Below are positions 1-16,032 of a DNA stretch of 16,032 nt, piece by piece. Source of the stretch: Candidatus Fraserbacteria bacterium (lineage in GTDB: Bacteria > Bipolaricaulota > Bipolaricaulia > RBG-16-55-9); contig JBBIOR010000031.1 in assembly GCA_037443265.1 (NCBI GenBank), positions 1-16,032 of the forward strand, written 5' to 3'. The stretch's first letter is position 1, and each line of letters begins with the position of its first letter. Below the pieces are notes generated by a model. That model made no database searches. It was not told the DNA's origin and worked only from the letters and a program-made list of their open reading frames with translations. Made by a program: the position numbers and the translations under genes.

Positions 1-13
1 ATCCCGGGTGTGA

Positions 14-166
14 TCAGGGTTCGATCACTACCCCTCCGCCACCTCCAGTCAGCCCACCCAGCGCCATCAACCCGGTCCCGACTCCCATGGCCCGAAGCAC
101 CTTTCTACGTGTGAGTCCTCCCCGACCTTCCTTGACCTCTTCGTATGATTCCTTGCCGCAACACAG
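14..166 (-). pseudogene. Internally deleted paralog of the Tat-lipoprotein precursor: signal peptide fused directly to the C-terminal GGGGGVVIEP tail
   Basis: Reads (L)CCGKESYEEVKEGRGGLTRRKVLRAMGVGTGLMALGGLT-GGGGGVVIEP*. The first part matches the N-terminus encoded at 3022-3140 and the end matches the C-terminus at 2286-2318. CTG at 166-164 stands where the full copy has ATG; AGGAGG RBS at 182-177; the lipobox Cys is absent. Confidence 0.8.
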
Positions 167-218
167 TTTTCTTGTACCTCCTTCTTTGGCGAACTTCAAG
201 TCCACCTGTAAGGTAAGG
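48..218. repeat. Direct repeat, copy 2 of 3022-3190 (5' UTR, RBS and Tat signal coding region)
   Basis: 48-166 aligns ungapped with 3022-3140 with 9 mismatches in 119 nt by manual count. Similarity continues through ACTTCAAGTCCACC and TAAGG x2 (209-218). Confidence 0.95.
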
Positions 219-264
219 TGGGGTCGTGACCAAATTCGCTTTATATCAGCTCTTCTAGGAACGA

Positions 265-573
265 TCAGGTTTGCTCCAATCTCTGCATGCGCTTGCTGAG
301 CCACCTTCTTATGATCACTAATAAGGGAATATCCAGCAAGTTAAGAGCGACGAGGATGACCAACATGAGGGCTACCGTGCGCTGTTCGCTGGAGACAGCT
401 AGCAGCATGGCAAGCACTAACGCGATCCAGGCATTGATGAAAGCAAGTGGCTTCCAGCGGAAGAGGGCGAGAGCGAAGAGAAACTCAAGGATGATCCCCA
501 GGGTTAGCAAGGTCACTACTCCTCCCATGGAACTCAAGAAGGCTTCGATAGCTTCTACGATCCCGATTGGCAT
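265..573 (-). CDS. Small membrane protein (about 3 TM helices), candidate immunity protein
   Basis: 102 aa, three hydrophobic stretches and a basic C-terminus (RRWLSKR). Starts 3 nt after the stop of the upstream ORF. The immunity role is inferred from position only. Confidence 0.7.
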   Translation of the reverse strand: MPIGIVEAIEAFLSSMGGVVTLLTLGIILEFLFALALFRWKPLAFINAWIALVLAMLLAVSSEQRTVALMLVILVALNLLDIPLLVIIRRWLSKRMQRLEQT

Positions 574-576
574 GGG

Positions 577-945
577 CTATCTCTTTGCATCTCCTTCCAA
601 GAGGTTCTCCGGCGGAGAGAGCTTCAAGGGTCGGTAGAGCCTCTTAATGAGCACAGCTAGAACCTGTAGGGTGCCAAGAACGATGAGGATAACAGCAACC
701 ACAGGATGGCCGTCCTTAAAGGCCATCATAATGCCAATGGCTAAGCCCAGCCAGGACACGATTAACATCTCCAAGGGATAGAATCTGAGGGAGCGTGCTA
801 TCTTGGGATAACGTGCGATATTTCGAAAGTTCTTGCTCCAATCTATGAGGAAAATACCGCAAAAAGCCGCCACGGCTTGGATGAGGCCTATCCCGAGGAG
901 AAACCATCCATCTACCGAGGAACCCCAAAAACTCGTCAGCTCCAT
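577..945 (-). CDS. Small membrane protein (about 3 TM helices), candidate immunity protein
   Basis: 122 aa with three hydrophobic segments. Its strong RBS (TAGGAGGG) overlaps the TAG stop of the Cys-rich ORF 958-1500, which suggests translational coupling. Confidence 0.75.
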   Translation of the reverse strand: MELTSFWGSSVDGWFLLGIGLIQAVAAFCGIFLIDWSKNFRNIARYPKIARSLRFYPLEMLIVSWLGLAIGIMMAFKDGHPVVAVILIVLGTLQVLAVLIKRLYRPLKLSPPENLLEGDAKR

Positions 946-957
946 CTTGAATCCCTC

Positions 958-1500
958 CTAAGGTGCAGGACAATCAGCGGATGATGGATTGCAAGGTGGT
1001 GGAGGATTCCCTCCAGAATCACTACCCCCAGTACCACATCTGCCACAGGCACGTGCTGTAAAGTACGTCTCCGCCAGCAGGAAAAAGACACCGACCAAAC
1101 ATCCCGCTAATCCTGTAAGGCAAGCCGCACCAGTGCGCCAGGCACCATAGTAATGTCCTGCTGTACCAATCCCACACGCAACGCAGCTCTCTGCGTCTTG
1201 TGCAATGACACCCTGAGAAGAAGCAGTGCTAGGGAACAACTTGCCTGCTTGAACTACAAATTCTTTGTGCTGAATCAAGAGTTGATATAGTCTCTCACCC
1301 AGGGGCAAGAGTGGGGAGTCATCGATGCCCTTAAACAATTCAGCAAGCTGCTGAGCGCTCTGCTCGGAATCCGCACGAGTTACATCAACTTGCCTACCAT
1401 TCCAAGCTACGCTGACGCTATGTGCCGCGATCAATTCAGGATACCTAGTTTCCTCCTCACGATACCATTCAATCGTCCTTGCGGGATTCGGTTTTAGCAT
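958..1500 (-). CDS. Signal-less (probably 5'-truncated) precursor with a C-terminal Cys-rich peptide (tip 3)
   Basis: 180 aa. SSQGVIAQ junction, then a 79-aa tip with 8 Cys (CVAC...C-x6-C...CGRC plus a Gly/Pro tail). No Tat signal and no clear RBS; the ATG overlaps the stop of the orphan tip. Confidence 0.7.
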   Translation of the reverse strand: MLKPNPARTIEWYREEETRYPELIAAHSVSVAWNGRQVDVTRADSEQSAQQLAELFKGIDDSPLLPLGERLYQLLIQHKEFVVQAGKLFPSTASSQGVIAQDAESCVACGIGTAGHYYGAWRTGAACLTGLAGCLVGVFFLLAETYFTARACGRCGTGGSDSGGNPPPPCNPSSADCPAP

Positions 1501-1686
1501 TCATCCACCGCCACCATGATGGCACCAGCAGGGCCCACAACGGCGCCGCCGCAGCCGATACAGGAAACCCTAGTGGGTTCAGCTGCCACACGCTGAGCAG
1601 GCCACGCCAGCTGCGACTCCCGCGGCAACCGCCACCAGAATAGAGCCCAGACATCCCCAGAACCCCTGAGCACTCACGATAGTTTG
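1494..1686 (-). pseudogene. Orphan Cys-rich peptide tip (tip 2): no start codon, 1-nt frameshift
   Basis: Reads QTIVSAQ-GFWGCLGSILVAVAAGVAAGVACSAC. Removing one base at 1586-1587 continues it as AAEPTRVSCIGCGGAVVGPAGAIMVAVDEC* (TAA 1496-1494). The repaired peptide has symmetric Cys spacing and the same CAAxPxxxxC loop as tip 1. Confidence 0.7.
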
Positions 1687-1688
1687 AG

Positions 1689-2252
1689 CTAACGCTCTTC
1701 TTGATTCTTGACAAAACTCTTTACTATGAGACGAGGTGCGTTGAAGCCGTACACGCTCCAGGCAGCTGCCGTCATCGGTGGCAGGACCAAGGCCAAGGCC
1801 GTCTTGAGAAGCGGATCTTTGATGGATGGATACAGCGAGCACGTGAGATTGTTCCCAATGGTGGCACCTGTCCAGCCAAAAAGGTAAGCCAATCCCCAAT
1901 CCCCATAGATACCTTGGCGGATGGTTGTAAGATACACGAGGGTCGGTATGTTGAATACTGGCAAGAATATCTCATGCCTCGGGCGGATCTCATGCAGTAG
2001 GGTGCCTGACTTGCACCAGTCGTCAGGGGTCTCCACGAGAGAATTTAAACGTCCTGTGGCAAGTAGGAACCCAATTCCTGTGACAAAGTCTACCGCGACA
2101 GTAGCGAGCAGCTGCTCTTGTCCTTCAGAAGTGAGCCATATATCCCAAGGCCACCCTGATCCTTCTGCCTCAACTCCCCATAAAGTCGCCATTGTCACCA
2201 TCAAGAAAAGAATCATCATGCAGGATCCCAACTTACTCCTCAAAATTCTCAT
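1689..2252 (-). CDS. Membrane protein with N-terminal signal/TM segment, candidate immunity protein for tip 1
   Basis: 187 aa; basic-hydrophobic N-terminus ending ..VEA, then several hydrophobic segments. AAGGAGGG lies upstream; the gene starts 33 nt downstream of the precursor stop. Confidence 0.75.
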   Translation of the reverse strand: MRILRSKLGSCMMILFLMVTMATLWGVEAEGSGWPWDIWLTSEGQEQLLATVAVDFVTGIGFLLATGRLNSLVETPDDWCKSGTLLHEIRPRHEIFLPVFNIPTLVYLTTIRQGIYGDWGLAYLFGWTGATIGNNLTCSLYPSIKDPLLKTALALVLPPMTAAAWSVYGFNAPRLIVKSFVKNQEER

Positions 2253-2285
2253 GGTGATAGCCTGCCCTCCTTCTTACTTCTTACC

Positions 2286-3140
2286 TCAAGGTTCAATGAC
2301 GACACCACCTCCGCCACCGCATCCACCGCACGCCACACAAGCAGCAAGGCAGACTGCAGCTGCGAATGCTAGAGCAGCCTGACAATCTGATGAATTCGGC
2401 CATGCAGCACATATTATGGCGGCAGTCACCGCTGCAGCGGCACAGATAGCAGCAGCTGTTGAGCAACTGACTTCTTGTGCTTCCACGATACCCTCAGAGC
2501 TTTCTTGCATGCCATCCGCGATTTCCTCGGCTTTGATTCTTAAGAGTTCTTGGCGTACATGCTGCACAAGACCGCCCTCTTTGAGAATGTGCGCTACCGC
2601 TTGTTTCCATCGTTCACTATTGTTAATGATCTGAAATGTGCCTTCAAGAACGCCTTTGAAATGGGATGGAAGTTTGGAGATTTAAAATTCCTCAATAAAT
2701 TGCTTTTGCAATTGATATGCGGCCTCCTTGTCGTAACTATTCCACTGGAGCTTCATATTGAACTCCTGAGATATGCCAACCTTATGTAGTTTATCAAGGG
2801 CTTCTAGTGTCCACTGCTTCGCCGAATTGATTTTGACCTTGATGAGTTTTTTCTGCAAATGGCCATTTCGAGACTGATATGCCCTTGCGAGCGTGTGGAA
2901 TACATCCTTCCACTGATCTTTAGTAGCTTGTAGAAGTTTCACCAGATCAGAGTGATTCCCCTGGGCCAGTAAGGTGCTACGACTATCTTCACCACTTCTG
3001 GCTGTCCAATCGACACATCCCGTCAGCCCACCCAGCGCCATCAACCCGGTCCCGACTCCCATGGCCCTAAGTACCTGCCTTCGTGTGAGTCCTCCCCGAC
3101 CTTCCTTGACCTCTTCGTATGGTTCCTTGCCACAGCACAT
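2286..3140 (-). pseudogene. Tat-exported lipoprotein precursor with C-terminal Cys-rich peptide (tip 1), interrupted by one in-frame TAA
   Basis: ORFs 2682-3140 and 2286-2567 share a frame, and the gap is open apart from TAA at 2684-2682 (..FIEEF*ISKLPSHFKGVLEG..), giving 284 codons. Tat motif TRRQVL, hydrophobic core, lipobox LTGC, junction SSEGIVEAQ, 62-aa Ala-rich tip with 8 Cys. RBS AGGAGG at 3154-3149. Confidence 0.8.
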
Positions 3141-3190
3141 GACTTCTACCTCCTCTGTGGGCAGACTTCAAGTCCACCGGTAAGGTAAGG
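3022..3190. repeat. Direct repeat, copy 1 (matches 48-218)
   Basis: Direct sequence comparison, as described for 48-218. Confidence 0.95.
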
Positions 3191-3215
3191 TAAGGTAAGG
3201 TAAGGTAAGGTAAGG
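3181..3215. repeat. Pentanucleotide microsatellite (TAAGG)7
   Basis: Seven perfect TAAGG units; the paralogous position (209-218) has two. Confidence 0.98.
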
Positions 3216-3241
3216 ATAACACAACTTTAAAGATTTGTCAA
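3213..3241 (-). promoter_or_regulatory. Sigma70-type promoter for the peptide locus
   Basis: TTGACA (3241-3236), 17-nt spacer ending in TGT (extended -10 TG), TATCCT (3218-3213). Confidence 0.75.
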
Positions 3242-3275
3242 GACCCTTAAAAATAGAGACAAGCCCACGCACAAA

Positions 3276-4232
3276 TTAGAGGTCGCGAACGATCTCCGTC
3301 CCCGCCTGTCCCTCTAACGCTTCTTTCGCCTGTTCCAACGACGCAATGATCGCCCGCTCCCCGCCGTTCTCTAAAAACAGAATGGCCGCCTCAATCTTCG
3401 GCCCCATGCTCCCCGGCGGAAATTCTCCAGATTGTAAATGGCGCTTGGCCTCCTCCAGAGTGAGCCTCTCCAGATCTAGCTGCTGCGGCGTTCCATAGCG
3501 AAGAGTCACCCGCTTGACGTCCGTTAAAATCAGAAGCACGTGGGCACCCAACGCGGTAGCCAAGCGCTCGGACGCCAAGTCTTTGTCAATGACGGCCTCA
3601 ACTCCCCGCAGCCGCCCGTTCTCCCGCACCACCGGCACACCCCCTCCCCCACAGGCAATGACCACATGCCCGGCCGCCACCAGCTTGTGAATGACCCTCC
3701 ACTCCACAATCTCGATGGGCCGAGGCGAAGGCACAACTCGACGATAAGCCCGAGGTCCTCTCCCCACTCTTTTGATCACATAGCCCCGGGTCCGCTGCAA
3801 CGGCTCAGCTTCACTTAAAGAATAAAACGGCCCGATGGGTTTCGTAGGCTCCAAAAAGGCGGGATCGCACGCATCGACGACGACTTGAGTGATGACCGTC
3901 ACGACGGGTTTATTAAGCCCTTCTGCCCCGAGGGCCTCTCCCAGCGCCTGCTGGAGCAGATAGCCGATCTGGCCTTGCGTCATCGCTCCACAGACATCCA
4001 AGGGCCAAGGAGGCACAAGCTCTTGGGCCTGCTCCTGTTGGATGAGCAGTTGTCCCACGTGCGGCCCGTTGCCGTGGGTCAGTACCACCCGCGCGCCGCT
4101 CCCCACCAGGCGGGCGATCTGCCGGCACGTTCGGGCGATGGCCGCCCTCTGCTCTTGCTCTCCCCCATGGCCAGACAAGAGGGCGTTGCCTCCCAAAGCG
4201 ATGACAATCGTCTGTGGCCTTCGGCTGTTCAT
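3276..4232 (-). CDS. arcC: Carbamate kinase
   Basis: Motifs VIALGGNAL, THGNGP(H)VG, TQGQIGY, PTKPIGPFY, RRVVPSPRP, GGGGVPV, EAVIDKD and GSMGPKIEAA; 318 aa. Confidence 0.95.
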   Translation of the reverse strand: MNSRRPQTIVIALGGNALLSGHGGEQEQRAAIARTCRQIARLVGSGARVVLTHGNGPHVGQLLIQQEQAQELVPPWPLDVCGAMTQGQIGYLLQQALGEALGAEGLNKPVVTVITQVVVDACDPAFLEPTKPIGPFYSLSEAEPLQRTRGYVIKRVGRGPRAYRRVVPSPRPIEIVEWRVIHKLVAAGHVVIACGGGGVPVVRENGRLRGVEAVIDKDLASERLATALGAHVLLILTDVKRVTLRYGTPQQLDLERLTLEEAKRHLQSGEFPPGSMGPKIEAAILFLENGGERAIIASLEQAKEALEGQAGTEIVRDL

Positions 4233-4243
4233 GCGAGAGATTT

Positions 4244-5641
4244 TTAGACGTGCTCGACTTTGATGAGATTGGTCGTCCCCGGCACGCCGAAGGGGACCCC
4301 GGCCGTGATGATCACGGCTGCGCCTTTGGGGAGACTCATGGCCTCGGCGGCCGCCTCGATCGAGCGCCGGAGCATGAGATCCGTGTCTTTAAAGAACTCA
4401 ATCTGGATCGGATAGACCCCCCAGACCAGCGCCAGCTTGTTCTTGACCTTCTCGGAGTAGGTTACGGCCAGGATGGGGATGCGCGGACGGAATTTCGCCA
4501 CGAGCTTGGCCGTCGAGCCGGAAGTCGTCGAAGGGATGATGGCCGCAGCTTCAATGCGCTCGGCAATCTGGCAGGCCGACTCTCCAATGGCTTCTGGCAC
4601 TGTCGCGTGCTGGCCACGATATTTGTGATAAACAGAGGGAGCCTGTTCGATGCGCTGGGCAATCGTGCTCATCACCCGCACGGCCTCGATGGGATATTTT
4701 CCGATGGCCGTCTCCTCCGAAAGCATGAGGGCATCGGCCCCGTCGAGGATGGCGTTGGCCACATCGGCCACCTCCGCGCGCGTCGGGGTGGGATGCTCCG
4801 TCATCGATTTGAGCATCTGTGTGGCGATGATCACGGGTTTTCCGGCGCGATTGCACCTCATCACGATCTCCTTCTGCACCAGGGGGACTTCCTCGATGGG
4901 CAACTCCACGCCCAAGTCCCCGCGGGCCACCATCACCCCATCGGCAGCGTGGATGATCAGGTCGATGTTCTTCACGGCTTCGCGCGTCTCGATCTTGGCG
5001 ATCACATCGATGTTCGAATCTTTCAAAAGAGCCCGCACTCGGTGTAGGTCATCGGCCCGCTGGACAAAGGAGACGGCCAGATAGTCCACCTCCAGCTCGG
5101 CCGCAAAGCGGACGTGCTCATCCTCCTGATCGCTTATGGGAATGACCACCCCCGGGACGCTCACGCGCTTGCGTTCTCCCAGCAGGCCACTATTCAGAAC
5201 CCGGCAGACGACTTCCGGGGAGCGCACTTCGACTACGCGCAGCCGAATCTCCCCGTTGGCCAGAAGCACTTCCATCCCCGGCTTGAGATAGTGCGAAACC
5301 CCCTGTTGATTGATGGAGATGCGCGTCTCATCTCCCAAGATGGGCTCCTCTGTGAGGACCAGCTCCTGGCCCGCCTGGAGCCGGATGGTTTCGCCCTTGA
5401 GATCGCCTGTGCGCAGCGCGTGGCCCGGCGTGTCCACCATGACGGCCACGGCCCGCTGGAAGGCTCTGGCCACCTGCCGCACCCGCTGGGCGAGCAGGCG
5501 GTGCTCCTCCCGCGCACCATGGGAGAGATTGATCCGAGCCACGTCCATCCCCGCTCGGATCATCTCAGCCAGCGTCGGCTCATCCCAGGAGGCCGGACCT
5601 AAGGTGACTACGATCTTAGTTCGCTTCATCACCAATCCCAT
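4244..5641 (-). CDS. pyk: Pyruvate kinase
   Basis: Motifs KRTKIVVTLGPAS, ARINLSHG, IAKIE, DGVMVARGDLGVE, ATQML.SM, PTRAEVADVANAILDGAD and GTTN. The start could also be the Met at 5629. Confidence 0.97.
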   Translation of the reverse strand: MGLVMKRTKIVVTLGPASWDEPTLAEMIRAGMDVARINLSHGAREEHRLLAQRVRQVARAFQRAVAVMVDTPGHALRTGDLKGETIRLQAGQELVLTEEPILGDETRISINQQGVSHYLKPGMEVLLANGEIRLRVVEVRSPEVVCRVLNSGLLGERKRVSVPGVVIPISDQEDEHVRFAAELEVDYLAVSFVQRADDLHRVRALLKDSNIDVIAKIETREAVKNIDLIIHAADGVMVARGDLGVELPIEEVPLVQKEIVMRCNRAGKPVIIATQMLKSMTEHPTPTRAEVADVANAILDGADALMLSEETAIGKYPIEAVRVMSTIAQRIEQAPSVYHKYRGQHATVPEAIGESACQIAERIEAAAIIPSTTSGSTAKLVAKFRPRIPILAVTYSEKVKNKLALVWGVYPIQIEFFKDTDLMLRRSIEAAAEAMSLPKGAAVIITAGVPFGVPGTTNLIKVEHV

Positions 5642-5666
5642 TTCGAGCCTCGCGAGCCACAGCCAA

Positions 5667-5695
5667 ACTATATTGAGGACTCCAGGCCCAGTCTA
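5667..5695 (-). promoter_or_regulatory. Possible sigma70 promoter for pyk-arcC
   Basis: TAGACT (5695-5690), 17 nt, TATAGT (5672-5667). Confidence 0.4.
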
Positions 5696-5734
5696 TCAAG
5701 TCTCTAAGACAAAGCAAGCGACTGATCGAGATCA

Positions 5735-5763
5735 TTGTCCGCGGTGGTGCGAACCCTTATCAT
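5735..5763 (+). promoter_or_regulatory. Possible sigma70 promoter for the sdh operon
   Basis: TTGTCC (5735-5740), 17 nt, TATCAT (5758-5763). Confidence 0.45.
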
Positions 5764-5807
5764 AGTCAAAGCTTTCAGCGTTCAACCATCAGCGGAGGTG
5801 GAATCTT

Positions 5808-6530
5808 GTGGCAGCTGCTCTAGCGGAGCGATTGCCCTGGTGGCTCTCGCCGGCGACCGTCTTTGTGGGGCTCAGCGCGTTTGTGGTCTATGCGACCTGG
5901 GCTGTGGTCTTTGGAGAGGGCACCCATCAGTTCGAGAATTATCTCTCGCCGTTCTATTCGCCCTATCTGGGAGGGCTGGGTCTCCCCTTCTCGCCCGCCA
6001 TTCTCATCATGTGGGTGCCTTTGGGCTTCCGCCTGACTTGTTATTACTATCGAAAAGCCTACTATCGTGCGTTCTTCTGGGATCCTCCCGCCTGCACCCG
6101 AGGGGAACTGCGCGGCGAGCAATATCACGGCGAGACGAGATTCCCGTTCCTCTTGCACAATTTACATCGCTACTTTCTCTACGGCGCCCTCGTCGTCTGG
6201 GTCTTCCTAGCCATCGATACCGTAAGGGCCTTCCTCTTCGACGGGCACTTCGGCATACGACTGGGCTCATTGATCTTTCTGGCCAACATCGTGCTGTTGG
6301 GACTCTATACGTTCTCTTGCCACTCCTGGCGCCATCTCATCGGAGGGAATCTCGATTGCTTTTCCTGCTCGACCGCCGCGAAGCTGAGGCATGGGGCTTG
6401 GCAGAGGGTGAGCCTGCTCAACAAGAATCACATGCTGTGGGCCTGGACGAGCCTCGGCTCCGTGTCCTTGGCGGATCTCTATGTGCGGCTTCTGGTGGCC
6501 GGGATCATCACGGACCCGAAGTTCATCTGA
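5808..6530 (+). CDS. Succinate dehydrogenase membrane anchor, mycobacterial Sdh1 (Rv0249c-like) type
   Basis: About 5 TM segments; motifs YLSPFYSP, RLTCYYYRKAYYRAF, NLHRYF, SCHSWRH and HMLWAW. GGAGG RBS before GTG; directly upstream of sdhA-sdhB. Confidence 0.85.
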   Translation: MAAALAERLPWWLSPATVFVGLSAFVVYATWAVVFGEGTHQFENYLSPFYSPYLGGLGLPFSPAILIMWVPLGFRLTCYYYRKAYYRAFFWDPPACTRGELRGEQYHGETRFPFLLHNLHRYFLYGALVVWVFLAIDTVRAFLFDGHFGIRLGSLIFLANIVLLGLYTFSCHSWRHLIGGNLDCFSCSTAAKLRHGAWQRVSLLNKNHMLWAWTSLGSVSLADLYVRLLVAGIITDPKFI

Positions 6531-6544
6531 TCTGAGGGTACGCT

Positions 6545-8315
<1,771 letters not shown>

Positions 8316-8323
<8 letters not shown>

Positions 8324-9059
8324 GCCTACCCCGCCATCTTGGGTGCGCGTCTGGCGCGGCTCTTCCCAGGGAGGCGAATTTTTAGATTATAAAGTCCCCG
8401 GCGAGCCGGGCATGGTGGTGCTGGATGCCCTCCTGTATATTCAAGCCAACTACGCTCCGGATCTGGCGATTCGCTGGAACTGCAAGGCGGCCCACTGCGG
8501 CTCCTGCAGTGCCGAAATCAACGGGAAGCCCCGCCTCACCTGCAAGACGCGCCTTTCGGAATTCGAGGGCCAGATCATCACTGTCGCGCCCATGAGGGCC
8601 TTCCCGATCATCAAAGATCTGGTGACCGACGTCAAGTGGAATTATGAAGTGCTCAAGAAGATCCCGCCGTTTCAGCCGCAGCCAGATGCCAAGGAGCCTT
8701 GGACGATCTATCAGCGGGATATCGAGCGCGCACAAGAATTTCATAGATGCATCGAGTGTTTCTTGTGTCAGGACGTCTGCCACGTGCTGCGCACGCACCG
8801 CAAGATGGCGGAGTTTGCCGGACCGCGCTTTCTGATCAAACTGGCCGCCCTGGAGATGCACCCCCTGGACACGGGCCAGCGCCTGGAATTCATTAAAGAC
8901 GCAGCGGGCATCGGCTACTGCAACATCACCAAGTGCTGCACAGAAGTCTGCCCCGAGCAGATCACCATCACGGATAACGCGATCATTCCGCTCAAGGAGC
9001 GTGTGGCCGATGAGTTTTATGATCCGCTGCGCTGGCTGCTCCGAAAGCTCCGGGGCTAG
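8316..9059 (+). CDS. sdhB: Succinate dehydrogenase/fumarate reductase iron-sulfur subunit
   Basis: CKAAHCGSC..C [2Fe-2S] motif, CIECFLCQDVC and CNITKCCTEVCP. ATG at 8316 follows AGGAGGAG and overlaps the end of sdhA by 8 nt. Confidence 0.95.
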
Positions 9060-10017
9060 AATCCTTCCTCCTCTCCCAGGGGTTTTGCACGTGGCAGGGG
9101 CGTCCGGTCTTGGCTATGTAATCTTGATGATACTCCTCCGCCGGCCAGAAGGTCTGGGCCGGCTCCAGTTGGGTGACGATGCGTCTTTTACCGTACCGCC
9201 TGGAAGCCTCCAGCTCGCGGAGGAAGCGTTCCGCTTCCTGCCGCTGTTCTTCGCTCGTGTACCAGATCCCAGAACGATACTGCTGCCCTATGTCAGGCCC
9301 CTGCCGGTTCAGCTGAGTGGGATCGTGCATGTCAAAAAAAGCCTCTAAGAGCCGGCGGTAGCTGATCCGCTTGGGATCGTAAATCACCTTCACCGTTTCC
9401 GCGTGTCCGGTGTTGCCCGCGCACACCTGCTCGTAGGTGGGATGATCCACAGGCCCCTGCATGTATCCCGAGATGACGTCGATGACGCCAGGACCCTGCT
9501 GGAAGTAATGTTCAAGGCCCCAGAAGCACCCTCCGGCAAAGTAGGCCACCTCGGCCTCTACGGGACGGCTTTCCGGCGGAAGCTCCTCCCCCCGCTCGTA
9601 AAAGCGCAGGGCCGCGGAGTTGAGGCAATGGCGCTCCCCTGTAGGGGGCGGACCGTCATCGAACACGTGCCCCAAGTGCGCTCCGCAGCGGGCACATAGC
9701 AACTCCGTTCGCACCATGCCATGGGAGAGATCGGGCTTGCGCGCCACATGCTCGGGGTCGAACTCGCGGTAAAAAGAGGCCCAGCCGGTGCCAGATTCAT
9801 ATTGATGATCGCTTAAGTACAGCGGCAATCCACAGACGACGCAGACGTAGATCCCATCTTTGGGGTGGTCGACAAACTGGCCGCAGAAGGGCGGTTCGGT
9901 GCCAGCCTTCTGGGTGACGCGAAAGCTTTCCGGGTCCAAGCGGGCCGCTCGGCTCGCTACTTCTTCCTGGGGCAGGGGCGTGATGTCGTAATGGGATTTG
10001 GAATACCGCGGCTTCAC
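8992..10017 (-). CDS. msrAB: Bifunctional methionine sulfoxide reductase, MsrB (N-terminal) fused to MsrA (C-terminal)
   Basis: MsrB: GTEPPF, CVVC/CARC Zn pairs, HLGHVFDDGP, RHCLNS. MsrA: FAGGCFWG, TGHAE, HDPTQLNRQGPDIG, AEEYHQDY. RBS AAGGAGG before GTG. Confidence 0.95.
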   Translation of the reverse strand: MKPRYSKSHYDITPLPQEEVASRAARLDPESFRVTQKAGTEPPFCGQFVDHPKDGIYVCVVCGLPLYLSDHQYESGTGWASFYREFDPEHVARKPDLSHGMVRTELLCARCGAHLGHVFDDGPPPTGERHCLNSAALRFYERGEELPPESRPVEAEVAYFAGGCFWGLEHYFQQGPGVIDVISGYMQGPVDHPTYEQVCAGNTGHAETVKVIYDPKRISYRRLLEAFFDMHDPTQLNRQGPDIGQQYRSGIWYTSEEQRQEAERFLRELEASRRYGKRRIVTQLEPAQTFWPAEEYHQDYIAKTGRPCHVQNPWERRKDSSPGAFGAASAADHKTHRPHAP

Positions 10018-10066
10018 GGATGCCCTCCTTTATCTCGACTGGGAGTCTACCCGGGCATATAGGCCA

Positions 10067-10096
10067 TTGACAACTGGGCAGAGGATGCTCTACACT
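10067..10096 (+). promoter_or_regulatory. Probable sigma70 promoter for sodC (near-leaderless transcript)
   Basis: TTGACA (10067-10072), 18 nt, TACACT (10091-10096). The ATG is 8 nt further on and has no Shine-Dalgarno sequence. Confidence 0.55.
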
Positions 10097-10104
10097 GCCA
10101 GAAT

Positions 10105-10731
10105 ATGAGGGAGAGACGGCTGCTCAGCCTCCTGGTCATAGTCGCGGGGATCTGGGTTCTGGTAGTCCCCGCGTGGGCGGCCGAGGAGCGAGCTGTGGTG
10201 GAACTGCGCGACTCACAAGGGCAGCTCGTAGGCATCGCCATACTCGCACAAGAAGAGGCAGGCGTTCGCATCGGCGTGGTCGTGAAAAACCTAAGCCCTG
10301 GGCTGCACGGCATTCACCTCCATGCCGCCGGCACATGCGAGCCACCGGATTTCTCATCGGCGGGTCCTCACTTCAACCCGCTAGGCAAGAAGCACGGCTT
10401 GGACAACCCCCAAGGCCCTCATGCGGGAGACTTGCCCAATCTCGCAGTCGGGCCCGATGGCACGGGCATCCTGGACATCATCACGGAGCGCGTGACGCTT
10501 AAGGCGGGGCCGCTATCGCTCTTCGACGCCGATGGAAGCGCCCTGGTCATCCACGCCGGCCCGGATGATCAACAGAGCGATCCCGCGGGCAACAGCGGCG
10601 GACGCATCGCCTGCGGGATCATCCTGCCTCGCGTTGAACCAGGCCCCGGTGACGGCAGGCCTACGCTCTTGCTGCTCATATTGGTCGTCCTGACTGCGCT
10701 GCTCCTTCTCTTTCTAGGGGTGTTGCGCTGA
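10105..10731 (+). CDS. sodC: Cu/Zn superoxide dismutase with signal peptide and C-terminal TM anchor
   Basis: HGIHLH, GPHFNP, KHG, HAGDLPNL, VIHAGPDD and GNSGGRIACG; signal peptide ending AWA; Leu-rich C-terminal helix. Confidence 0.93.
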   Translation: MRERRLLSLLVIVAGIWVLVVPAWAAEERAVVELRDSQGQLVGIAILAQEEAGVRIGVVVKNLSPGLHGIHLHAAGTCEPPDFSSAGPHFNPLGKKHGLDNPQGPHAGDLPNLAVGPDGTGILDIITERVTLKAGPLSLFDADGSALVIHAGPDDQQSDPAGNSGGRIACGIILPRVEPGPGDGRPTLLLLILVVLTALLLLFLGVLR

Positions 10732-10738
10732 AAGACGC

Positions 10739-10767
10739 TTGACATCTCCTTGCGCAGATCATAAAAT
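10739..10767 (+). promoter_or_regulatory. Sigma70 promoter for bpsA-speD
   Basis: TTGACA (10739-10744), 17 nt, TAAAAT (10762-10767). Confidence 0.75.
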
Positions 10768-10884
10768 CTCCTTTGATCTCCAAAGGGGGAGCCGCGAGGT
10801 CTCCAGTCCAGGACCTCGCATGAGCGCTGGAAATTCCAACTACGCAGAGCTGTGGATTAGCTCTGCTCTAAGAGGAGGGGGTCA
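10768..10884 (+). promoter_or_regulatory. Structured 5' leader, candidate cis-regulatory RNA
   Basis: Perfect 8-bp stems GCGAGGTC/GACCTCGC (10794-10801/10812-10819) and GCAGAGCT/AGCTCTGC (10844-10851/10859-10866), plus CTCCTTTG/CAAAGGGG and TGGAAATTCCA, in about 110 nt before the RBS. Confidence 0.45.
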
Positions 10885-12012
10885 TTGGCTCGAACGAGCC
10901 TCTATGAGCGAATCCGACGGAAGACGACCGTACCGGCCACGGAGCGAGACGTCGAGCGGGTCCTCGCCAGCCTTAAGGCCGCGCAGGATATCTGGGAGCT
11001 CATGGGCATCTGTGACGTCCCGCTGGCTGTCTTGCCCGTCATCCTGGAGGAGTGTCAGCGAGAGGGCCTGCTGCGGCGGCAGGGGGATCGTTGGGAACTC
11101 ACATCGGCCGGTCGAGCCTTCGTCGAGGAGCGCGGCTGGACCCCTCTTCCATCAGCCCGCTGCCCGGCCTGCTTGGGCCGCGGCCTCGATCTCTCCCCCC
11201 TCCAGAAGCTCCTAGAAAAATTCACAAAGATCAGCGAAGATCGTCCGCCTGCGCACGCGGAGTACGACCAGGGATACGTGACGCCGGAGACGACCATCGC
11301 GCGCATCGCCCTCATGCGCCTCCGGGGAGATCTCGATGGCAAGAGGGTCATCGTGCTGGGGGATGATGATCTGGTGGGAATCGCAGCCGCGCTGAGCGGC
11401 TTTCCCCAGCATATCACCGTGCTGGAGATCGATCAAGATCTTGTGGCCTTCATTCAAGAGATCCAGGAACGCTTCGGACTCCCCAGGCTCGACGTGCGGG
11501 CTCATGACCTGCAAGACCCCCTGCCTCATGATCTTTTAAGGAGCTATGACACGTTTGCCAGTGATCCTCCGGAGAGCCTGGATGGATTCAAGCTCTTCGT
11601 AAGCCGGGGTCTAAGCACTCTCCGGGGCGAAGGGAGCGCGGGCTACTTTGGGCTCAGCCGCCATGAAGCCTCTTTAGCCAAGTGGCACCAGCTGCAAGCT
11701 TGGCTGCTTATGCAAGGTGCCGCAATCACAGACGTCATCGATGACTTCAACACCTATCTCCCCTGGCCCTACTGGGAGGAGATGCGTGCCCGCCACTGGC
11801 TGCAAATTCAAAGACCTCCCACGCGCCCTTGGTATCGCTCGACCCTCTATCGCGTTGAGCTGATTTTAGCGAAAGAGTACCCGAATGAGCCCTTCCAGGG
11901 GACGTTTGAGGATCCCGAGCTGGCAACTGTGGGCAGAAGCCCTTCCGGCACAGGAGGTGACAATGCGGCCGCTGGGACGACATCTCATCATGGACGCCTG
12001 GGAGTGCAATGA
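10885..12012 (+). CDS. bpsA: Branched-chain polyamine synthase (N4-bis(aminopropyl)spermidine synthase, DUF43)
   Basis: CPAC.GRG, YDQGYVTPETTIARIALM, LGDDDL, EID, DPPES, GYFGLS..EAS..KW and WYRS. TTG start after AGAGGAGG. Confidence 0.9.
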   Translation: MARTSLYERIRRKTTVPATERDVERVLASLKAAQDIWELMGICDVPLAVLPVILEECQREGLLRRQGDRWELTSAGRAFVEERGWTPLPSARCPACLGRGLDLSPLQKLLEKFTKISEDRPPAHAEYDQGYVTPETTIARIALMRLRGDLDGKRVIVLGDDDLVGIAAALSGFPQHITVLEIDQDLVAFIQEIQERFGLPRLDVRAHDLQDPLPHDLLRSYDTFASDPPESLDGFKLFVSRGLSTLRGEGSAGYFGLSRHEASLAKWHQLQAWLLMQGAAITDVIDDFNTYLPWPYWEEMRARHWLQIQRPPTRPWYRSTLYRVELILAKEYPNEPFQGTFEDPELATVGRSPSGTGGDNAAAGTTSHHGRLGVQ

Positions 12013-12379
12013 AGAGATCAATTCCGTGGAGGCCATCGCGGAAGCCTTGTGCGAGGCCGTCTCAAGAAGCCGGGCCACGCTGATCGAGCTGTTCGTCCAT
12101 CCCTTCACCCCACACGGGGTAAGCGGAGTCGCCGTGATCGCAGAATCGCACATCGCCGTCCACACGTGGCCGGAGAAATCTTACCTGAGCCTGGATGTGT
12201 TCACCTGTGGGGAACGCGCGATGCCTGAGGCGGTCATCGAGGTCTTTAAAGAGCGCTTCCGACCTGGGCGCTGCCACCTTATCGAGATTCCCCGCGGCCA
12301 GTGGCCCGCGACGGCGCAGAATAGCTTCGCTGTTTCTCACTCCGCTCGAAATAGCCTACAGCACGCCTGCGACAGTTGA
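11963..12379 (+). CDS. speD: S-adenosylmethionine decarboxylase proenzyme (short, class 1B type)
   Basis: LGRHLIMD, HPFTPHGVSGVAVIAESHIAVHTWPE (E-S pyruvoyl cleavage site) and DVFTCG. ATG 11963 follows GGAGGTGA. Supplies dcSAM for BpsA. Confidence 0.9.
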   Translation: MRPLGRHLIMDAWECNEEINSVEAIAEALCEAVSRSRATLIELFVHPFTPHGVSGVAVIAESHIAVHTWPEKSYLSLDVFTCGERAMPEAVIEVFKERFRPGRCHLIEIPRGQWPATAQNSFAVSHSARNSLQHACDS

Positions 12380-12427
12380 CTTCCGCTCCACCGGAGGCTA
12401 CCCTCTCTTCACGAGGTGATCCGCGGC

Positions 12428-13753
12428 ATGGCGCGATGGGAGCTCCGAATCGTAGGGCTCTTATTCCTGCTCGTCTCCGGCCTGCCGCTCACAGCTCAGC
12501 CGGAGATCCCCGTCACCGTGACGGTGACCCTCGACGGAAGGCCCGCCGAGGCCCTAATCAAAATCTTTCAGAATGAGCAGCTGCGGAGCGTAGAGTATAC
12601 CGATGTGCATACGCCCGGTCGCGCTCAATTCCAACTACCCCCGGGAGACTATACTCTGAGCGTCGAGCGCGGGGCCGGCTTCACAGCCCTACCCAAGACT
12701 TTGCCGCTGGCCGTCTCCAGCTCTGCCGTGGTGCTGGCTGCCCGTCTGGAGCGGGCACTCGATCCCCGCTCGCAGGGCTATTATTCAGCCGATTTGCACG
12801 CCCACTCTCTCGCGGGCAACGCAGCCATGGAACGATTCTTTCGGCTCCGCAACGAGGCGGCCACCCCCACAGATCAACTCGTGGGCGTGCAGATGGCAGC
12901 CGATCTCGACATCGTCTTCCTAAGCGATCACAACTCCGTCGACGGACACGAGCTCTTCGCCCGGACGGCCCGTGAGCGCGCTGTTCCCTTCCTCTTGAGT
13001 GAGGAGATCACCACGCTGGTGGCGGGCCATTTCAACCCCTATCCGCTCAACCCGGCAGAGCTGGTGGAATTCGATTTCAACAAGACACCCAGTCAATTCT
13101 TTGCCGAGGCTCGAGCCAAAGGGGCAGTGATCCTGCAAGTCAATCACCCTTACGATCCGCTCTTCGGCTATTTCCTCGAGCGCAATCGCGCGCTGTTCGA
13201 TCCCTCCTTTGACGCGGTGGAAGTCTTCAACGGCCCCTTCGACGAGACCGACCTTAGGACCATCCAACGGATGTTCGAGTTCTGGAACGAGGGTAAGCGC
13301 TACACGGCCGTAGGCGTCTCCGACGATCACGACTGGAAAGATCTGCTCACACAATACGGCACCCCGCGAACCTATGTGCTAGCGGGGGAGGAGCTTTCTG
13401 TGGAGAGATTCATCGCAGCGCTCAAGGCGGGTCGTGCCTTCGCCACGTATGGGCCACTGGTCTTCTTCACGGCCTTGGGCTTCGCCGTGCCGGGGGATAC
13501 GGTGCAGCTTAGAGCCGGTGAGAAGCTCTCGCTTAGGGCGGAGATTCAAAGCGTCACGCCGTTGGATGGACTGAAGGCCGAGATCGTCCATAATAGGGAG
13601 CCTCTGGGCTCGTTTGTGCTGCACGGCCTATCCCAGACGATCTCAACGGAGGATACCCCCACCCGCGCCGGCTGGTATGCCGTGCGCCTGCTCGACGCCC
13701 AGCAAAGATATCTGGCCCTGACCAACCCCATCTGGGTTGAACTAGGCTCTTAA
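12428..13753 (+). CDS. Secreted PHP-domain (CehA/McbA-like) metallohydrolase
   Basis: Signal peptide, N-terminal beta-rich domain, motifs DLHAHS, SDHN, SEEIT, GHFN, NHP, EVFNG, SDDH and terminal TNPIWV. Start placed at ATG 12428 (GAGGTG 9 nt upstream); GTG 12416 is the alternative. Confidence 0.75.
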   Translation: MARWELRIVGLLFLLVSGLPLTAQPEIPVTVTVTLDGRPAEALIKIFQNEQLRSVEYTDVHTPGRAQFQLPPGDYTLSVERGAGFTALPKTLPLAVSSSAVVLAARLERALDPRSQGYYSADLHAHSLAGNAAMERFFRLRNEAATPTDQLVGVQMAADLDIVFLSDHNSVDGHELFARTARERAVPFLLSEEITTLVAGHFNPYPLNPAELVEFDFNKTPSQFFAEARAKGAVILQVNHPYDPLFGYFLERNRALFDPSFDAVEVFNGPFDETDLRTIQRMFEFWNEGKRYTAVGVSDDHDWKDLLTQYGTPRTYVLAGEELSVERFIAALKAGRAFATYGPLVFFTALGFAVPGDTVQLRAGEKLSLRAEIQSVTPLDGLKAEIVHNREPLGSFVLHGLSQTISTEDTPTRAGWYAVRLLDAQQRYLALTNPIWVELGS

Positions 13754-13815
13754 GAAAAGATCGTATCGGAAAGCCCAGCCAGGATTCTATAATTGAATTT
13801 GAGGAGGGGATGTGC

Positions 13816-14607
13816 ATGAAGCAGCTCGCTGTGGCACTAAGCCTTGTGGGGATATTGATGGCCTTCTCTTGGGCGCAACCGGACAGCGGCCAGATGGAGC
13901 AGACTCCCGGAGCTCCAAAGTCCATGGATCAAAAGCAGCTCCAGAGGGAGATCATGCTGCTTCGACTCATCAACGAGATGGGCCTGAGCCAGGATCAGCT
14001 GACCACTCTCAAAGAGATCGTCTCAAGCTTGGAGGCCGGCCAGCAAGCCGTCCTCCAAGCCCAACAGGAACTCCGGGATTTCCTCGCCAGCTACTCAGGA
14101 ACTCCAGAGGGCTTCGCGGAAGCTGTCAAGCCCTATGATGAGAAGGTCGCTCAAGCTAGCAAGAACTTCCAAGAGAAGCTCCAGGCCTCCGTGGAGCGGG
14201 TCAAGAGCGTGCTCACCCTCAAGCAAGGCGAGATCCTGCACAAGTTCCTCCTGCAACACAGGCGCCACGCCCTCCAGAAATTTGCGATGCCCATGCCCAA
14301 ATGGCCTGAGGATATGGAGTTCCACAGGCGGGGGTATGCTCCTCCGAAAGACGCCTGGGAGAAGCTTAAGCAGCTAAAAGAGCAGATCGGGAGATGGCTA
14401 GATCGCTGGGGTATTGATCTCGATGCCAAGCGCCTTGAGAGACAACACGCCATGCCGCGCGGGGAAGAGATGCCCATGCATGGGGGCATCAGCTCGCTGG
14501 AGGGCGACTTCATCGAACGCTTCCTCATGCACCACCTAGATCTTCTAGATCTGCTAGAGAAGATCATCACGGAGAAGCTCCAGAAGATGGGCACAACTCA
14601 CATTTAA
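13816..14607 (+). CDS. Exported helical protein, Spy/CpxP-like (LTxxQ-type motifs)
   Basis: Signal peptide ending AFSWA; LSQDQ and LTLKQ motifs flank a coiled-coil; Met/His-rich segments. AGGAGG spacing favours ATG 13816; TATAAT at 13788-13793. Family assignment is tentative. Confidence 0.6.
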   Translation: MKQLAVALSLVGILMAFSWAQPDSGQMEQTPGAPKSMDQKQLQREIMLLRLINEMGLSQDQLTTLKEIVSSLEAGQQAVLQAQQELRDFLASYSGTPEGFAEAVKPYDEKVAQASKNFQEKLQASVERVKSVLTLKQGEILHKFLLQHRRHALQKFAMPMPKWPEDMEFHRRGYAPPKDAWEKLKQLKEQIGRWLDRWGIDLDAKRLERQHAMPRGEEMPMHGGISSLEGDFIERFLMHHLDLLDLLEKIITEKLQKMGTTHI

Positions 14608-15314
14608 CGCATCACAAGGTAGAGCAGCAGAACGGTTCCCAGCACTAGAAGAGCGGCCCAACGCCTAAGATCCTCCAACAGCGATGAGCTCTCTTCTCCA
14701 ACCGCCTGCCATTGGCGCATAAGCGCTTCCGCTTGCTGGACGGCCTGATCTAAACGTTTTGTGAGTTGCTCAGCTTGTTCTAGCGTTGCCAGGGCCCGCT
14801 GGGGAATTTGAGGATCTTTTACGAGCGCGTTGGCCGCATCCAGCGTCTCTTCCAACTGGGCAAGCACGCGGGTAAGCCGCTGGGAGAGCTCCAGCTCCGA
14901 GACAGTCCCCGCGCCGATGAGCATCTCTCCCGCCTTAAGAATGCGACCCTCGCCCGGCCCCGGCCAGATCTCCACATACTTTTCGCCCAACAGTCCGAGC
15001 ATCCCGATGAGCACCCGATCATCGGAGCGAATCTGAAGGCCCTTGGGCAGCCAGAGACGGAGTTCCACTTGCGTCACAGGCGAAGAGGCTTCACGGACGA
15101 TCCGGATGCCCTTCACCTCACCCACCTCTACGCCAGCGAACTTCACGGGTGCTCCCACCACCAACCCACCTGCCGACTCGAAGACCGCCCGAATCTCATA
15201 GCCCGTGCTCAGCACGCGCCAGTCCCGGATCGCCAGGACGATGACGGCCATAATCAGCAGCCCCAAGACCACGAACAGCCCAACCCGTAAGAGCAGACGG
15301 GGCTCCCTCTCCAT
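14604..15314 (-). CDS. mlaD: MlaD/MCE-family lipid transport protein
   Basis: N-terminal TM (RVGLFV), F.SAGGL.VGAPVKFAGVEVGEV, GLLGEKYVEIWPG, helical region and a second TM at the C-terminus. Confidence 0.88.
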   Translation of the reverse strand: MEREPRLLLRVGLFVVLGLLIMAVIVLAIRDWRVLSTGYEIRAVFESAGGLVVGAPVKFAGVEVGEVKGIRIVREASSPVTQVELRLWLPKGLQIRSDDRVLIGMLGLLGEKYVEIWPGPGEGRILKAGEMLIGAGTVSELELSQRLTRVLAQLEETLDAANALVKDPQIPQRALATLEQAEQLTKRLDQAVQQAEALMRQWQAVGEESSSLLEDLRRWAALLVLGTVLLLYLVMR

Positions 15315-15323
15315 GAAAGCCTC

Positions 15324-16031: not shown

Positions 16032-16032
16032 G

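Follow-up and report, generated by a model that had tools for sequence, protein, structure and literature searches.

The window analyzed here, a 16,032-nucleotide stretch (positions 1–16,032) of contig JBBIOR010000031.1 from the Candidatus Fraserbacteria bacterium assembly GCA_037443265.1, carries on its minus strand three short Cys-rich segments, called tips 1, 2, and 3 below, in which Cys residues are arranged in mirror symmetry around a central loop. Translation and comparison with related sequences indicate that the tips are not free-standing peptides and that they are the C-terminal modules of a lineage-restricted family of lipoproteins of about 250–350 amino acids exported by twin-arginine translocation (Tat). 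The tip-bearing genes and associated features are listed in Table 1. Both parts of gene A lie in the same frame on either side of a TAA codon, and P0017, a 287-amino acid protein of the representative library, is colinear with both halves (55% and 53% identity) and has His in place of the TAA. Gene A is therefore a nonsense-interrupted Tat lipoprotein gene with tip 1 as its C-terminus. Tip 2 retains about ten codons 5' of its junction. The tip-3 open reading frame (ORF; 1500–958) encodes 180 amino acids; since it has no signal peptide and aligns to residues ~160–260, the C-terminal half, of the 333- to 351-amino acid proteins P0005, P0008, and P0014, it is a 5'-truncated orphan. The remnant next to the contig start has 91% nucleotide identity to positions 3011–3139, carries CTG in place of ATG, and has no promoter. 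The window holds a decaying array of cassettes: a gene interrupted by a nonsense codon, tips 2 and 3 as orphans, and what is left of a signal-peptide copy.

Table 1. Features of the cassette array and of the region upstream of gene A
Feature	Position	Strand	Basis
Promoter-like site, TTGACA-17-TATCCT with extended TG	3213..3241	-	10/12 consensus matches
(CCTTA)x7 pentanucleotide repeat	3181..3215	-	starts inside the -10 box and extends to the 5' leader
Gene A's Tat-type lipoprotein signal (MCCGKE...RR...LTGC)	3015..3140	-	weak TAT_signal matches; invariant RR and lipobox Cys in the 14-member alignment (A1)
Helical domain of gene A, first part	2685..3014	-	55% identity to intact ortholog P0017; modeled as helical in P0017
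In-frame TAA splitting gene A from tip 1	2682..2684	-	frame unchanged across the TAA
Helical domain of gene A, second part, ending IVEAQ	2475..2681	-	translation; alignment to P0017
Tip 1 with GGGGGVVIEP tail	2286..2474	-	translation; ortholog model
187-amino acid exported/membrane ORF, immunity-like partner	1689..2252	-	two transmembrane segments predicted from hydrophobicity (KD); homologs downstream of family genes
Tip 2 orphan fragment, TIVSAQ junction and tip, arms in different frames	1494..1680	-	translation (tip itself 1665–1494)
5'-truncated central domain of the tip-3 gene, no signal peptide	1198..1500	-	aligns to P0005, P0008, P0014
Tip 3, then PPPP run and tail Cys pair	958..1197	-	translation; AlphaFold2 model
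122-amino acid ORF with three transmembrane segments (mem122), partner of the tip-3 class	577..945	-	homologs after tip-3-class genes in L007, L009, L012
102-amino acid ORF with three transmembrane segments (mem102), second partner of the tip-3 class	265..573	-	transmembrane prediction; homology
Remnant: signal-peptide copy joined to the final codons of a tail of the tip-1 type	14..304	-	sequence comparison

A Logan contig of sequencing run X1 (1651–3043) shows the same TAA, and an X1 contig covering 1502–1680 is identical at the tip 2 frame change; X1 is possibly the source sample, so this agreement is not independent support. Logan contigs of runs X2 and X3 carry tip 3 and its neighbor and diverge from the window upstream of ~1480–1488, a point that we read as a recombination breakpoint. 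The AQ dipeptide at the junction was considered as the point of recombination and rejected, because the orphans keep from 10 to ~100 codons upstream of it. One X1 contig joins position 1690 to 3015 with a 40-nucleotide side, possibly placing a signal copy beside a tip-2-type gene, and is too short to interpret. Positions 1–3250 of the window are island-like in composition, with a G+C content of 48%–54% versus about 58%–62% for housekeeping genes.

Translation of the minus strand of positions 1–3300 in three frames, with residues numbered from the first after AQ, gave exactly the tip coordinates and Cys numbering of the earlier note. Tip 1 begins at 2474 directly after IVEAQ, and its Cys residues 4, 11, 22, 31, 42, and 49 are spaced 7-11-9-11-7, with C46 and C52 as extras. 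Tip 3 begins at 1197 after VIAQ and has Cys at 5, 8, 26, 33, 51, and 54 (spacing 3-18-7-18-3), followed by a PPPP run and the tail pair C69/C76. Tip 2, which begins at 1665 after IVSAQ, occupies two reading frames: its first arm, in the AQ frame, is spaced 18-3 and ends at a stop, and its second arm, in the other frame, is spaced 3-18, the frame change being located between 1588 and 1586. Since each arm is read in its own frame, their mirror relation holds without the sequence being repaired; only the loop length of 9 requires repair, and it is backed by the intact homologs P0024 and P0027, both 18-3-9-3-18. P0039 and P0042 are further intact proteins of this class. The CAAxPxxxxC loop said to be common to tips 1 and 2 is present as CAAWPNSSDC in the former and, read across the frame change, as CAAEPTRVSC in the latter, and Pro at that loop position recurs among aligned homologs. 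The arm intervals 3, 4, 7, 11, and 18 correspond to a/d positions, in agreement with the proposal that the Cys line one face of a helix. The description of the tips as hydrophobic holds for both arms of tip 1 (KD19 hydrophobicity of 1.7–2.2, resembling transmembrane segments) and for the first arm of tip 2, which is also transmembrane-like, the second being borderline; it fails for the first arm of tip 3, with a KD19 of ~0.2–0.3.

Proteins of the family (248–351 amino acids) start with a conserved MCCGKE...RR...LTGC signal and continue with a central domain, helical or mixed, and a tail of 45–80 amino acids, the two often being joined by V-x-[AGS]-Q. R20, R21, and C42 are invariant in the family alignment and the lipobox reads L-[TS]-G-C, which are features of bacterial Tat lipoproteins; TAT_signal models gave weak matches for 15 of 31 members, with scores mostly below the curated cut-offs. 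Two other loci of the same genome encode paralogs. On contig C7, an intact gene for the 283-amino acid protein P0001 (spacing 4-12-18-12-4) is accompanied by one whose tail is of the tip-3 type and which is frameshifted just after the signal. Contig C21 carries an intact gene for the 295-amino acid protein P0007 and, at its end, one more copy of the signal.

The family is rare. A profile of 14 members retrieved 57 clusters at E ≤ 1e-3 among 1,835,955,588 representatives and matched 12 of 184 genomes of the phylum, all of one order (family f1, 4/8; f2, 1/1; f3, 6/18; other families, 0). In the search of genome contigs, the sole matches were three contigs of one Candidatus Fraserbacteria metagenome-assembled genome. 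A scan of metagenome contigs with the A1 alignment gave 190 pattern matches with no relative among them, a tblastn search of plasmids with P0017 at E ≤ 10 matched nothing, a word-index search with the tip-3 region alone returned only the query, and Rfam gave no match for window positions 1–3400 at E ≤ 0.1. Pfam and NCBIfam recognized only the Tat signal in the window proteins, in the 14 A1 members, and, among the best 25 families listed, in 31 members of a second set (A2); the window tips had no Pfam match at E ≤ 1. Membership in NF058595 ("invert_tail," the lipo-invert C-terminal anchoring domain) was rejected, since the best score was 17 bits (E 0.005, for the tip-1 piece) against a cut-off of 37 bits; 4 of the 31 members matched (best E 0.002). 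Similar sub-threshold matches were found in 53 of the 184 genomes and, as they also occur in control genomes and many lie in unrelated frames, are attributed to compositional noise. No published account of the family was found in the literature searched on lipo-invert, Fraserbacteria lipoproteins, and disulfide helical hairpins in polymorphic toxins.

In many tails, the last residues are a stretch of Gly and then x-x-x-[TE]-P or C-P-[EA]-P (VVIEP, VKIIP, EDLTP, ERITP, DLAP, CPEP, CPAP), which may be a conserved C-terminal end motif. The distant members P0058 (383 amino acids) and P0059 (395 amino acids) have a short hydrophobic Cys segment, a Pro/Gly linker, and a C-terminus that by eye looks like a Hint (intein-like) domain. 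Hint domains occur in some polymorphic toxins.

The symmetry of Cys positions was evaluated for the C-terminal Cys clusters of the 55 family tips with at least four Cys. Three exactly mirrored pairs were present in 20 of them and three pairs within ±1 residue in 33; two mirrored pairs were found in 10 further tips with 4–5 Cys, and the Cys count was even in 50 of the 55. Exactly mirrored pairs summed to 119 compared with a mean of 83.0 (standard deviation 2.9, maximum 94) in 4,000 shuffles, a figure that overstates independence, as the tips are relatives and some are near-identical (L012/P0014, P0003/P0031). Individually, six-Cys tips with a perfect mirror had p ~0.001–0.005 against shuffles, and the eight-Cys tips 1 and 3 of the window only p ~0.03–0.08. 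Among 13,889 open frames of the genome (six-frame translation, at least 60 amino acids), 391 contained a six-Cys run of 30–62 residues, and six of these runs were exact palindromes: two from the family, one DnaJ-type zinc finger, and three Arg-rich off-frames. The DnaJ-type CxxCxGxG region (C6:84148–84255, spacing 6-3-17-3-6) was the sole real gene outside the family with an exact six-Cys palindrome; nested metal sites yield an identical palindromic signature.

Covariation of the arm spacings is a stronger argument than the shuffle statistics. The arm 7-11 is found in tip 1, P0017, P0037, P0057, and P0033, the arm 18-3 in tip 2, P0024, P0027, P0039, P0042, and the L016 gene, and the arm 3-18 in the tip-3 class; P0001 has 4-12, P0022 and P0003 have 4-11, and P0064 has 18 alone. 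Where the arm spacing differs between classes, the opposite arm differs in mirror image, and the loops range from 6 to 42 residues. The Cys positions are kept in homologs, as the earlier note had expected. In the tip-1 alignment (A5; 10 sequences, 20%–53% identity), five of the mirrored Cys are invariant and one is nearly so, and C46 and C52 are unconserved; mirrored Cys are likewise conserved in the tip-3 alignment (A3), where P0013 and P0048 lack both inner Cys and retain the outer CxxC pairs. The nested 1-6, 2-5, and 3-4 contacts postulated for the tips agree with both the mirror-image covariation and the joint loss of the inner pair.

The expected antiparallel helical hairpin was also obtained in structure prediction. 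The AlphaFold2 model of P0017, built from a 31-row alignment, had a mean predicted local distance difference test score (pLDDT) of 79.7 and a predicted template modeling score (pTM) of 0.73; the mature protein is modeled as all-helical, and its tail consists of helices 227–249 and 254–273 joined by a loop at 250–253, in blocks with pLDDT of 91–95. The model of the tip-3 ORF of the window was weaker (mean pLDDT 62) and placed helices at 103–127 and 131–156, separated by a loop, with pLDDT of 77–83. In both models, the predicted loop falls where the Cys mirror center lies. The tail is very probably a hairpin with contacts between mirrored Cys. In the earlier note, such a hairpin was proposed to be heat-stable and to insert into membranes, both conjectural properties. 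Structural matches reach approximately residue 254 of the P0017 model, which hints that the first tail helix may belong to the bundle formed by the rest of the protein. Weak Foldseek matches in PDB to components of alpha-pore-forming toxins (AhlC, SmhA, HblL1, MakA/E, ClyA, YaxB) had E of 0.5–1.6 and template modeling scores below 0.2 and were not counted, and a sequence profile search of PDB gave nothing meaningful.

Oxidation of the Cys residues outside the cytoplasm is plausible, since the proteins are predicted to be exported and the same genome encodes a DsbA-like protein (PF13462, 118 bits) adjoining DsbB (PF02600, 41.7 bits) at C24:16275–17221. VKOR (PF07884) had no match in this 88%-complete genome. 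In the tip-1 class and several others, distances of 7 and 11 residues along a helix separate the mirrored Cys, too far for a shared metal, so cross-helix stapling is the more economical common role, and the mirrored contacts are probably disulfides; for the CxxC pairs of tips 2 and 3, nested Cys4 sites that bind metal are conceivable instead. The richness in Ala and Gly may partly serve the close helix packing needed by an interhelix disulfide, beyond membrane affinity.

The genes of the family are regularly followed by genes for small membrane proteins. A same-strand ORF with two to six predicted transmembrane segments follows 16 of the 18 tip-bearing genes or fragments having a downstream flank, namely, three in the window, two in C7, one in C21, two in L007, those of L008, L009, L012, L013, L015, L016, L017, L024, and L030, and gene 2 of L033. 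Such an ORF is lacking after tip 2 of the window, whose neighbor is the adjoining tip-3 ORF, and after the second gene of L033. For the tip-3 and C21 types, the partners match the tip class. Tails of the tip-3 type are followed by a pair of three-segment proteins resembling mem122 and mem102 in four of five loci (window, L007, L009, L012) and by an ORF with six transmembrane segments in C7. Homologous six-segment ORFs follow the C21-type tail in both loci where it occurs (C21, L017). Homologs of the 187-amino acid protein follow four other tip types (L023, L015, L030, L024), and this partner family, with five clusters, is as rare as the lipoproteins themselves. Orphan modules lacking the 5' part of the gene include tips 2 and 3 of the window and L007 7552–8034, and alternative upstream joins were seen in other samples. 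Genes for modifying enzymes were not found in the window or in the related loci examined, where the flanks are housekeeping genes or small membrane ORFs.

The region upstream of the lipoprotein genes is also shared. The promoter block of gene A recurs upstream of the paralogs C7a and C21a and of L007, and the leader following (CCTTA)n is conserved and contains a GGAGG ribosome-binding site. The number of CCTTA copies differs between loci: 7 in the window, ~10 in C7a, 3 in C21a, and ~11–12 in L007 (repeats at C7 ~40250–40300, C21 ~28230–28250, L007 ~5900–5960, and the starts of L008 and L009). Logan contigs break at this repeat, and in one contig of X2 the remnant copy is longer by a unit (place 207). 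The (CCTTA)n repeat in the leader is proposed as a candidate phase-variation switch. The n-region MCCGKE(T)YEEVKEG, with two Cys straight after Met, is far better kept across genomes than the mature protein, and the signal-region copies of the paralogs (window 3140–3100 and its counterparts) have 91% nucleotide and 93%–95% amino acid identity; this conservation could be due to gene conversion, an mRNA element, or a Tat-targeting role. Two tip-3-class genes of different genomes have a frameshift shortly after the signal (C7 38187–38405/37292–38221; L009 38–283/237–1142), which may represent sequencing error, decay, or a slippage switch. Toxin-antitoxin fragments recognized by eye as HicA- or HicB-like lie directly upstream of signal copies at C7 38409–38795, C21 30292–30696, and L007 5412–5741; in C21, the fragment, likewise recognized by eye, continues in frame into the signal copy.

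The closest parallel to this precursor layout is ProC8 of Natrinema. According to the available parts of the source accounts, ProC8 is a 283-amino acid Tat-exported precursor cleaved into the N-terminal HalI and a 76-amino acid C-terminal peptide, the peptide being the antibiotic and the N-terminal domain the immunity protein (bioRxiv 10.64898/2026.07.27.741052; PMC11509114); HalC8 domains are also described there at the ends of RHS polymorphic toxins (bioRxiv 10.64898/2026.07.27.741052). As far as those accounts go, both systems combine a Tat signal, a length of ~283 amino acids, an N-terminal domain of ~200 amino acids, and a hydrophobic C-terminal part of ~60–80 amino acids, and such a precursor with a Cys-rich, mostly hydrophobic C-terminus was found here. 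Unlike ProC8, the family adds a lipobox Cys, so the N-terminal domain would remain lipid-anchored, and, instead of ABC transporters, its loci contain small membrane-protein genes downstream and multiple cassettes with orphan tips. A search of ESM Atlas with P0001 gave an unnamed cluster as the first match (0.92) and a "Halocin C8" cluster at 0.79, a lead only; for the tip-3 region, nothing scored above 0.80 and no halocin cluster appeared.

Similar hairpins are known from other proteins. Twin CX3C and CX9C (CHCH) proteins of the mitochondrial intermembrane space are described, in the parts of the publications available, as helix-loop-helix structures with nested disulfides formed by oxidation after translocation (PMC2064014; PMC4571295; PMC12114033). 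They resemble the tips in having mirror-spaced Cys on the two helices of a helix-loop-helix, predicted here by model and statistics, but they have two disulfides at a fixed spacing (3 or 9) and are soluble, eukaryotic, and oxidized by Mia40, whereas the tips have two to four pairs with class-specific spacings (3, 4, 7, 11, 18), are hydrophobic and rich in Ala and Gly, and belong to bacterial Tat lipoproteins. Plant alpha-hairpinins, to the extent covered by the accounts available, are antimicrobial helix-loop-helix peptides with a fixed four-Cys motif and two disulfides (PMC11591084; PMC7191063); they are short, cationic, soluble plant peptides, unlike the hydrophobic, lipoprotein-fused window tips with 6–8 Cys. 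In polymorphic toxins such as CdiA-CT and Rhs, a conserved N-terminal trafficking part is combined with variable C-terminal modules, as outlined in the portion of the source available (PMC3482391). The family shows the same features, with variable tip classes on a conserved signal and orphan modules without 5' parts, but its carrier is a small Tat lipoprotein instead of a large filamentous or RHS protein, and its central domain is variable too. CdiA-CT and Rhs loci contain displaced, 5'-less 3' cassettes downstream, each with a small partner gene. Toxin or immunity domains were not recognized by Pfam and NCBIfam in the window proteins or, among the best 25 families listed, in the A2 members. 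Pore-forming colicins carry a hydrophobic Ala/Gly-rich hairpin shielded in a helical bundle and have small polytopic membrane immunity proteins encoded nearby; they are not known to have Cys staples, and no match of fold or sequence was found here.

Taken by analogy with these systems, the tips may be disulfide-stapled hairpin peptides carried by halocin-C8-like bacteriocin precursors and encoded in polymorphic cassettes with immunity-like partners, a reading to which we give a little less than an even chance; an antagonistic toxin/immunity function is held just as tentatively. Such a protein would fold in the cytoplasm with the hairpin packed on its own helical domain, as the confident single-domain model suggests, and would be exported by Tat in the folded state and then lipid-anchored. 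The facing Cys would be oxidized to nested disulfides by the genome-encoded DsbA/DsbB. The stapled hairpin would be the active, membrane-directed part, possibly released at the junction as HalC8 is from ProC8, and the downstream protein with three or six transmembrane segments would, judging by synteny, be a class-matched partner, most likely conferring immunity. The fullest version of this scheme, which we consider unlikely as a whole, is an undescribed bacterial counterpart of halocin C8: one Tat-lipoprotein gene would encode both an anchored self-protecting or chaperoning domain and a releasable killer hairpin with three to four nested disulfides of class-specific spacing, with cassette exchange involving silent 3' modules, switching at the pentanucleotide repeat, and matched small membrane immunity proteins.

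Several results speak against the bacteriocin-precursor reading. The halocin C8 domain model TIGR04449 (halocin_C8_dom) had no match in the whole genome at E ≤ 10, nor for the window tips (E ≤ 1), the 14 A1 members (E ≤ 0.1), or, among the best 25 of 43 families, the 31 A2 members (E ≤ 10). PF22862 (HalI) also had no match in the genome at E ≤ 10, with a Haloferax control positive, and none for the window proteins or among the best 25 of 69 families for the A2 members. Since neither model was matched, the family is treated as working like ProC8, as an analogue rather than a member. The P0017 model had no Foldseek match in PDB at E ≤ 1e-3 (best E 0.13), and a wide search with VIA-align retrieved generic helical bundles only (Z ≤ 8.7). 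The Cys cluster was unmirrored in 12 of the 55 tips (P0007 and P0018, both with 7-11-8-23-7; P0002, P0006, P0029, P0034, P0049, P0055, P0056, P0061, P0063, and the L017 gene). Hydrophobicity is also missing from the first arm of tip 3. The AQ junction, which the earlier note had placed before the tips, precedes all three in the window but is not general, [AGS]Q being found in only 24 of the 47 tips examined across the family. There is no membrane ORF downstream of the second gene of L033, and the presence of homologs of the 187-amino acid partner behind several tip types fits poorly with strictly tip-specific immunity. Finally, all three copies in the window are broken or orphaned, so nothing there need be expressed.

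The main alternative is that the proteins are phase-variable surface lipoproteins in which the hairpin is a re-entrant or two-helix second anchor, the small membrane proteins are assembly or docking partners, and the variability of the locus serves evasion of phages or predators, with no toxicity involved. Phase-variable surface lipoproteins such as Vsp, Vlp, and Vsa of Mycoplasma typically have a conserved signal module, repeats in the leader, and frameshifts after the signal. The promoter, leader, and signal module are indeed conserved here at the nucleotide level while the mature parts vary, the leader contains a pentanucleotide repeat of variable copy number, and two genes are frameshifted just after the signal; the hydrophobicity of the tip 1 arms and the occurrence of one partner family behind different tips fit this explanation as well. 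However, a plain anchor needs no two to four precisely mirrored Cys pairs conserved across classes, AlphaFold2 packs the hairpin and the helical part as one confident domain, the first arm of tip 3 lacks hydrophobicity, and orphan 3' cassettes that retain partner genes resemble toxin/immunity arrays. We regard this alternative as unlikely, though a serious contender.

Binding of a metal or an iron-sulfur cluster by the Cys, with nested Cys4 sites formed by the CxxC...CxxC pairs of tips 2 and 3 and Tat needed for insertion of the cofactor in the cytoplasm, appears rather improbable. Tat signals typically accompany cofactor-bearing proteins, each of tips 2 and 3 has two mirror-placed CxxC motifs, and the DnaJ-type zinc finger of the same genome, a fold in which nested CxxC pairs bind zinc, shares the six-Cys palindrome. 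Against this, the mirrored Cys found in several classes, that of tip 1 among them, occupy the same place in the family but are 7 and 11 residues apart along the helix and cannot converge on one site; in the tip-1 class, i/i+3 spacings are confined to C46/C49/C52, where the extra Cys that are not conserved take part. The motif formed by the Cys varies, unlike usual cofactor motifs, and no iron-sulfur or zinc-finger model matched among the best 25 of 69 families, except zf-ChsH2 in one member (E 0.004).

It is very improbable that the proteins are precursors of peptides that are made ribosomally and modified post-translationally (RiPPs), with a long N-terminal leader and tail Cys converted to thioethers, thiazoles, or similar groups. 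The Cys/Gly/Ala-rich core following a conserved junction would suit such a precursor, and nested hairpin cross-links are known in sactipeptides, according to the available part of one account (bioRxiv 10.64898/2026.07.27.741052), but the window and the related loci examined contain no gene for a radical S-adenosylmethionine (SAM) enzyme, cyclodehydratase, or lanthionine synthetase. Besides, a Tat lipoprotein signal is no RiPP leader, and the Cys of the family lie in mirror positions on both arms, while in known sactipeptides they are on one arm only. That the symmetry has no structural meaning and arises from a low-complexity composition (Ala, Gly, Cys) or an inverted duplication within the sequence was already disfavored and is hardly credible, since, despite the modest individual p-values of the eight-Cys window tips and the exact palindromes in three Arg-rich off-frames, the family-wide sum of mirrored pairs exceeds the maximum of the null, the arms covary, mirrored Cys are conserved and extra Cys are not, AlphaFold2 independently centers a hairpin on the mirror axis, and no inverted DNA repeat was found within the tips.

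The rest of the window encodes pyruvate kinase, succinate dehydrogenase subunits, MsrAB, Cu/Zn superoxide dismutase, BpsA, SAM decarboxylase, and MlaD. At 10885–12379, the gene for the branched-chain polyamine synthase (BpsA_C, 278 bits) adjoins that for SAM decarboxylase. This pairing is typical of thermophiles, and it fits the labels "hot springs" and "subsurface" of the runs with related sequence, among which no RNA run was listed.

If the bacteriocin-precursor reading is true, the tips would be peptide weapons with a new type of structure, in which a ladder of nested disulfides holds a hydrophobic alpha-hairpin, and their genes would be the first conflict system to be described in this Fraserbacteria-like lineage, which is uncultured and probably thermophilic. 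As a sign of helix-helix pairing readable from sequence alone, the mirror-image covariation of Cys spacing is unusually clean; it could be used to find similar modules, and peptide engineers may take an interest in hairpins that are small and highly cross-linked. Should the tails prove to be anchors only, the locus would still be a clear case of hypervariable surface lipoproteins in organisms beyond the usual models. In view of the parallel with ProC8, the combination of toxin and shield in one Tat-exported precursor may recur in both domains of life, and the parallel offers a testable idea of how halocin C8 is processed.

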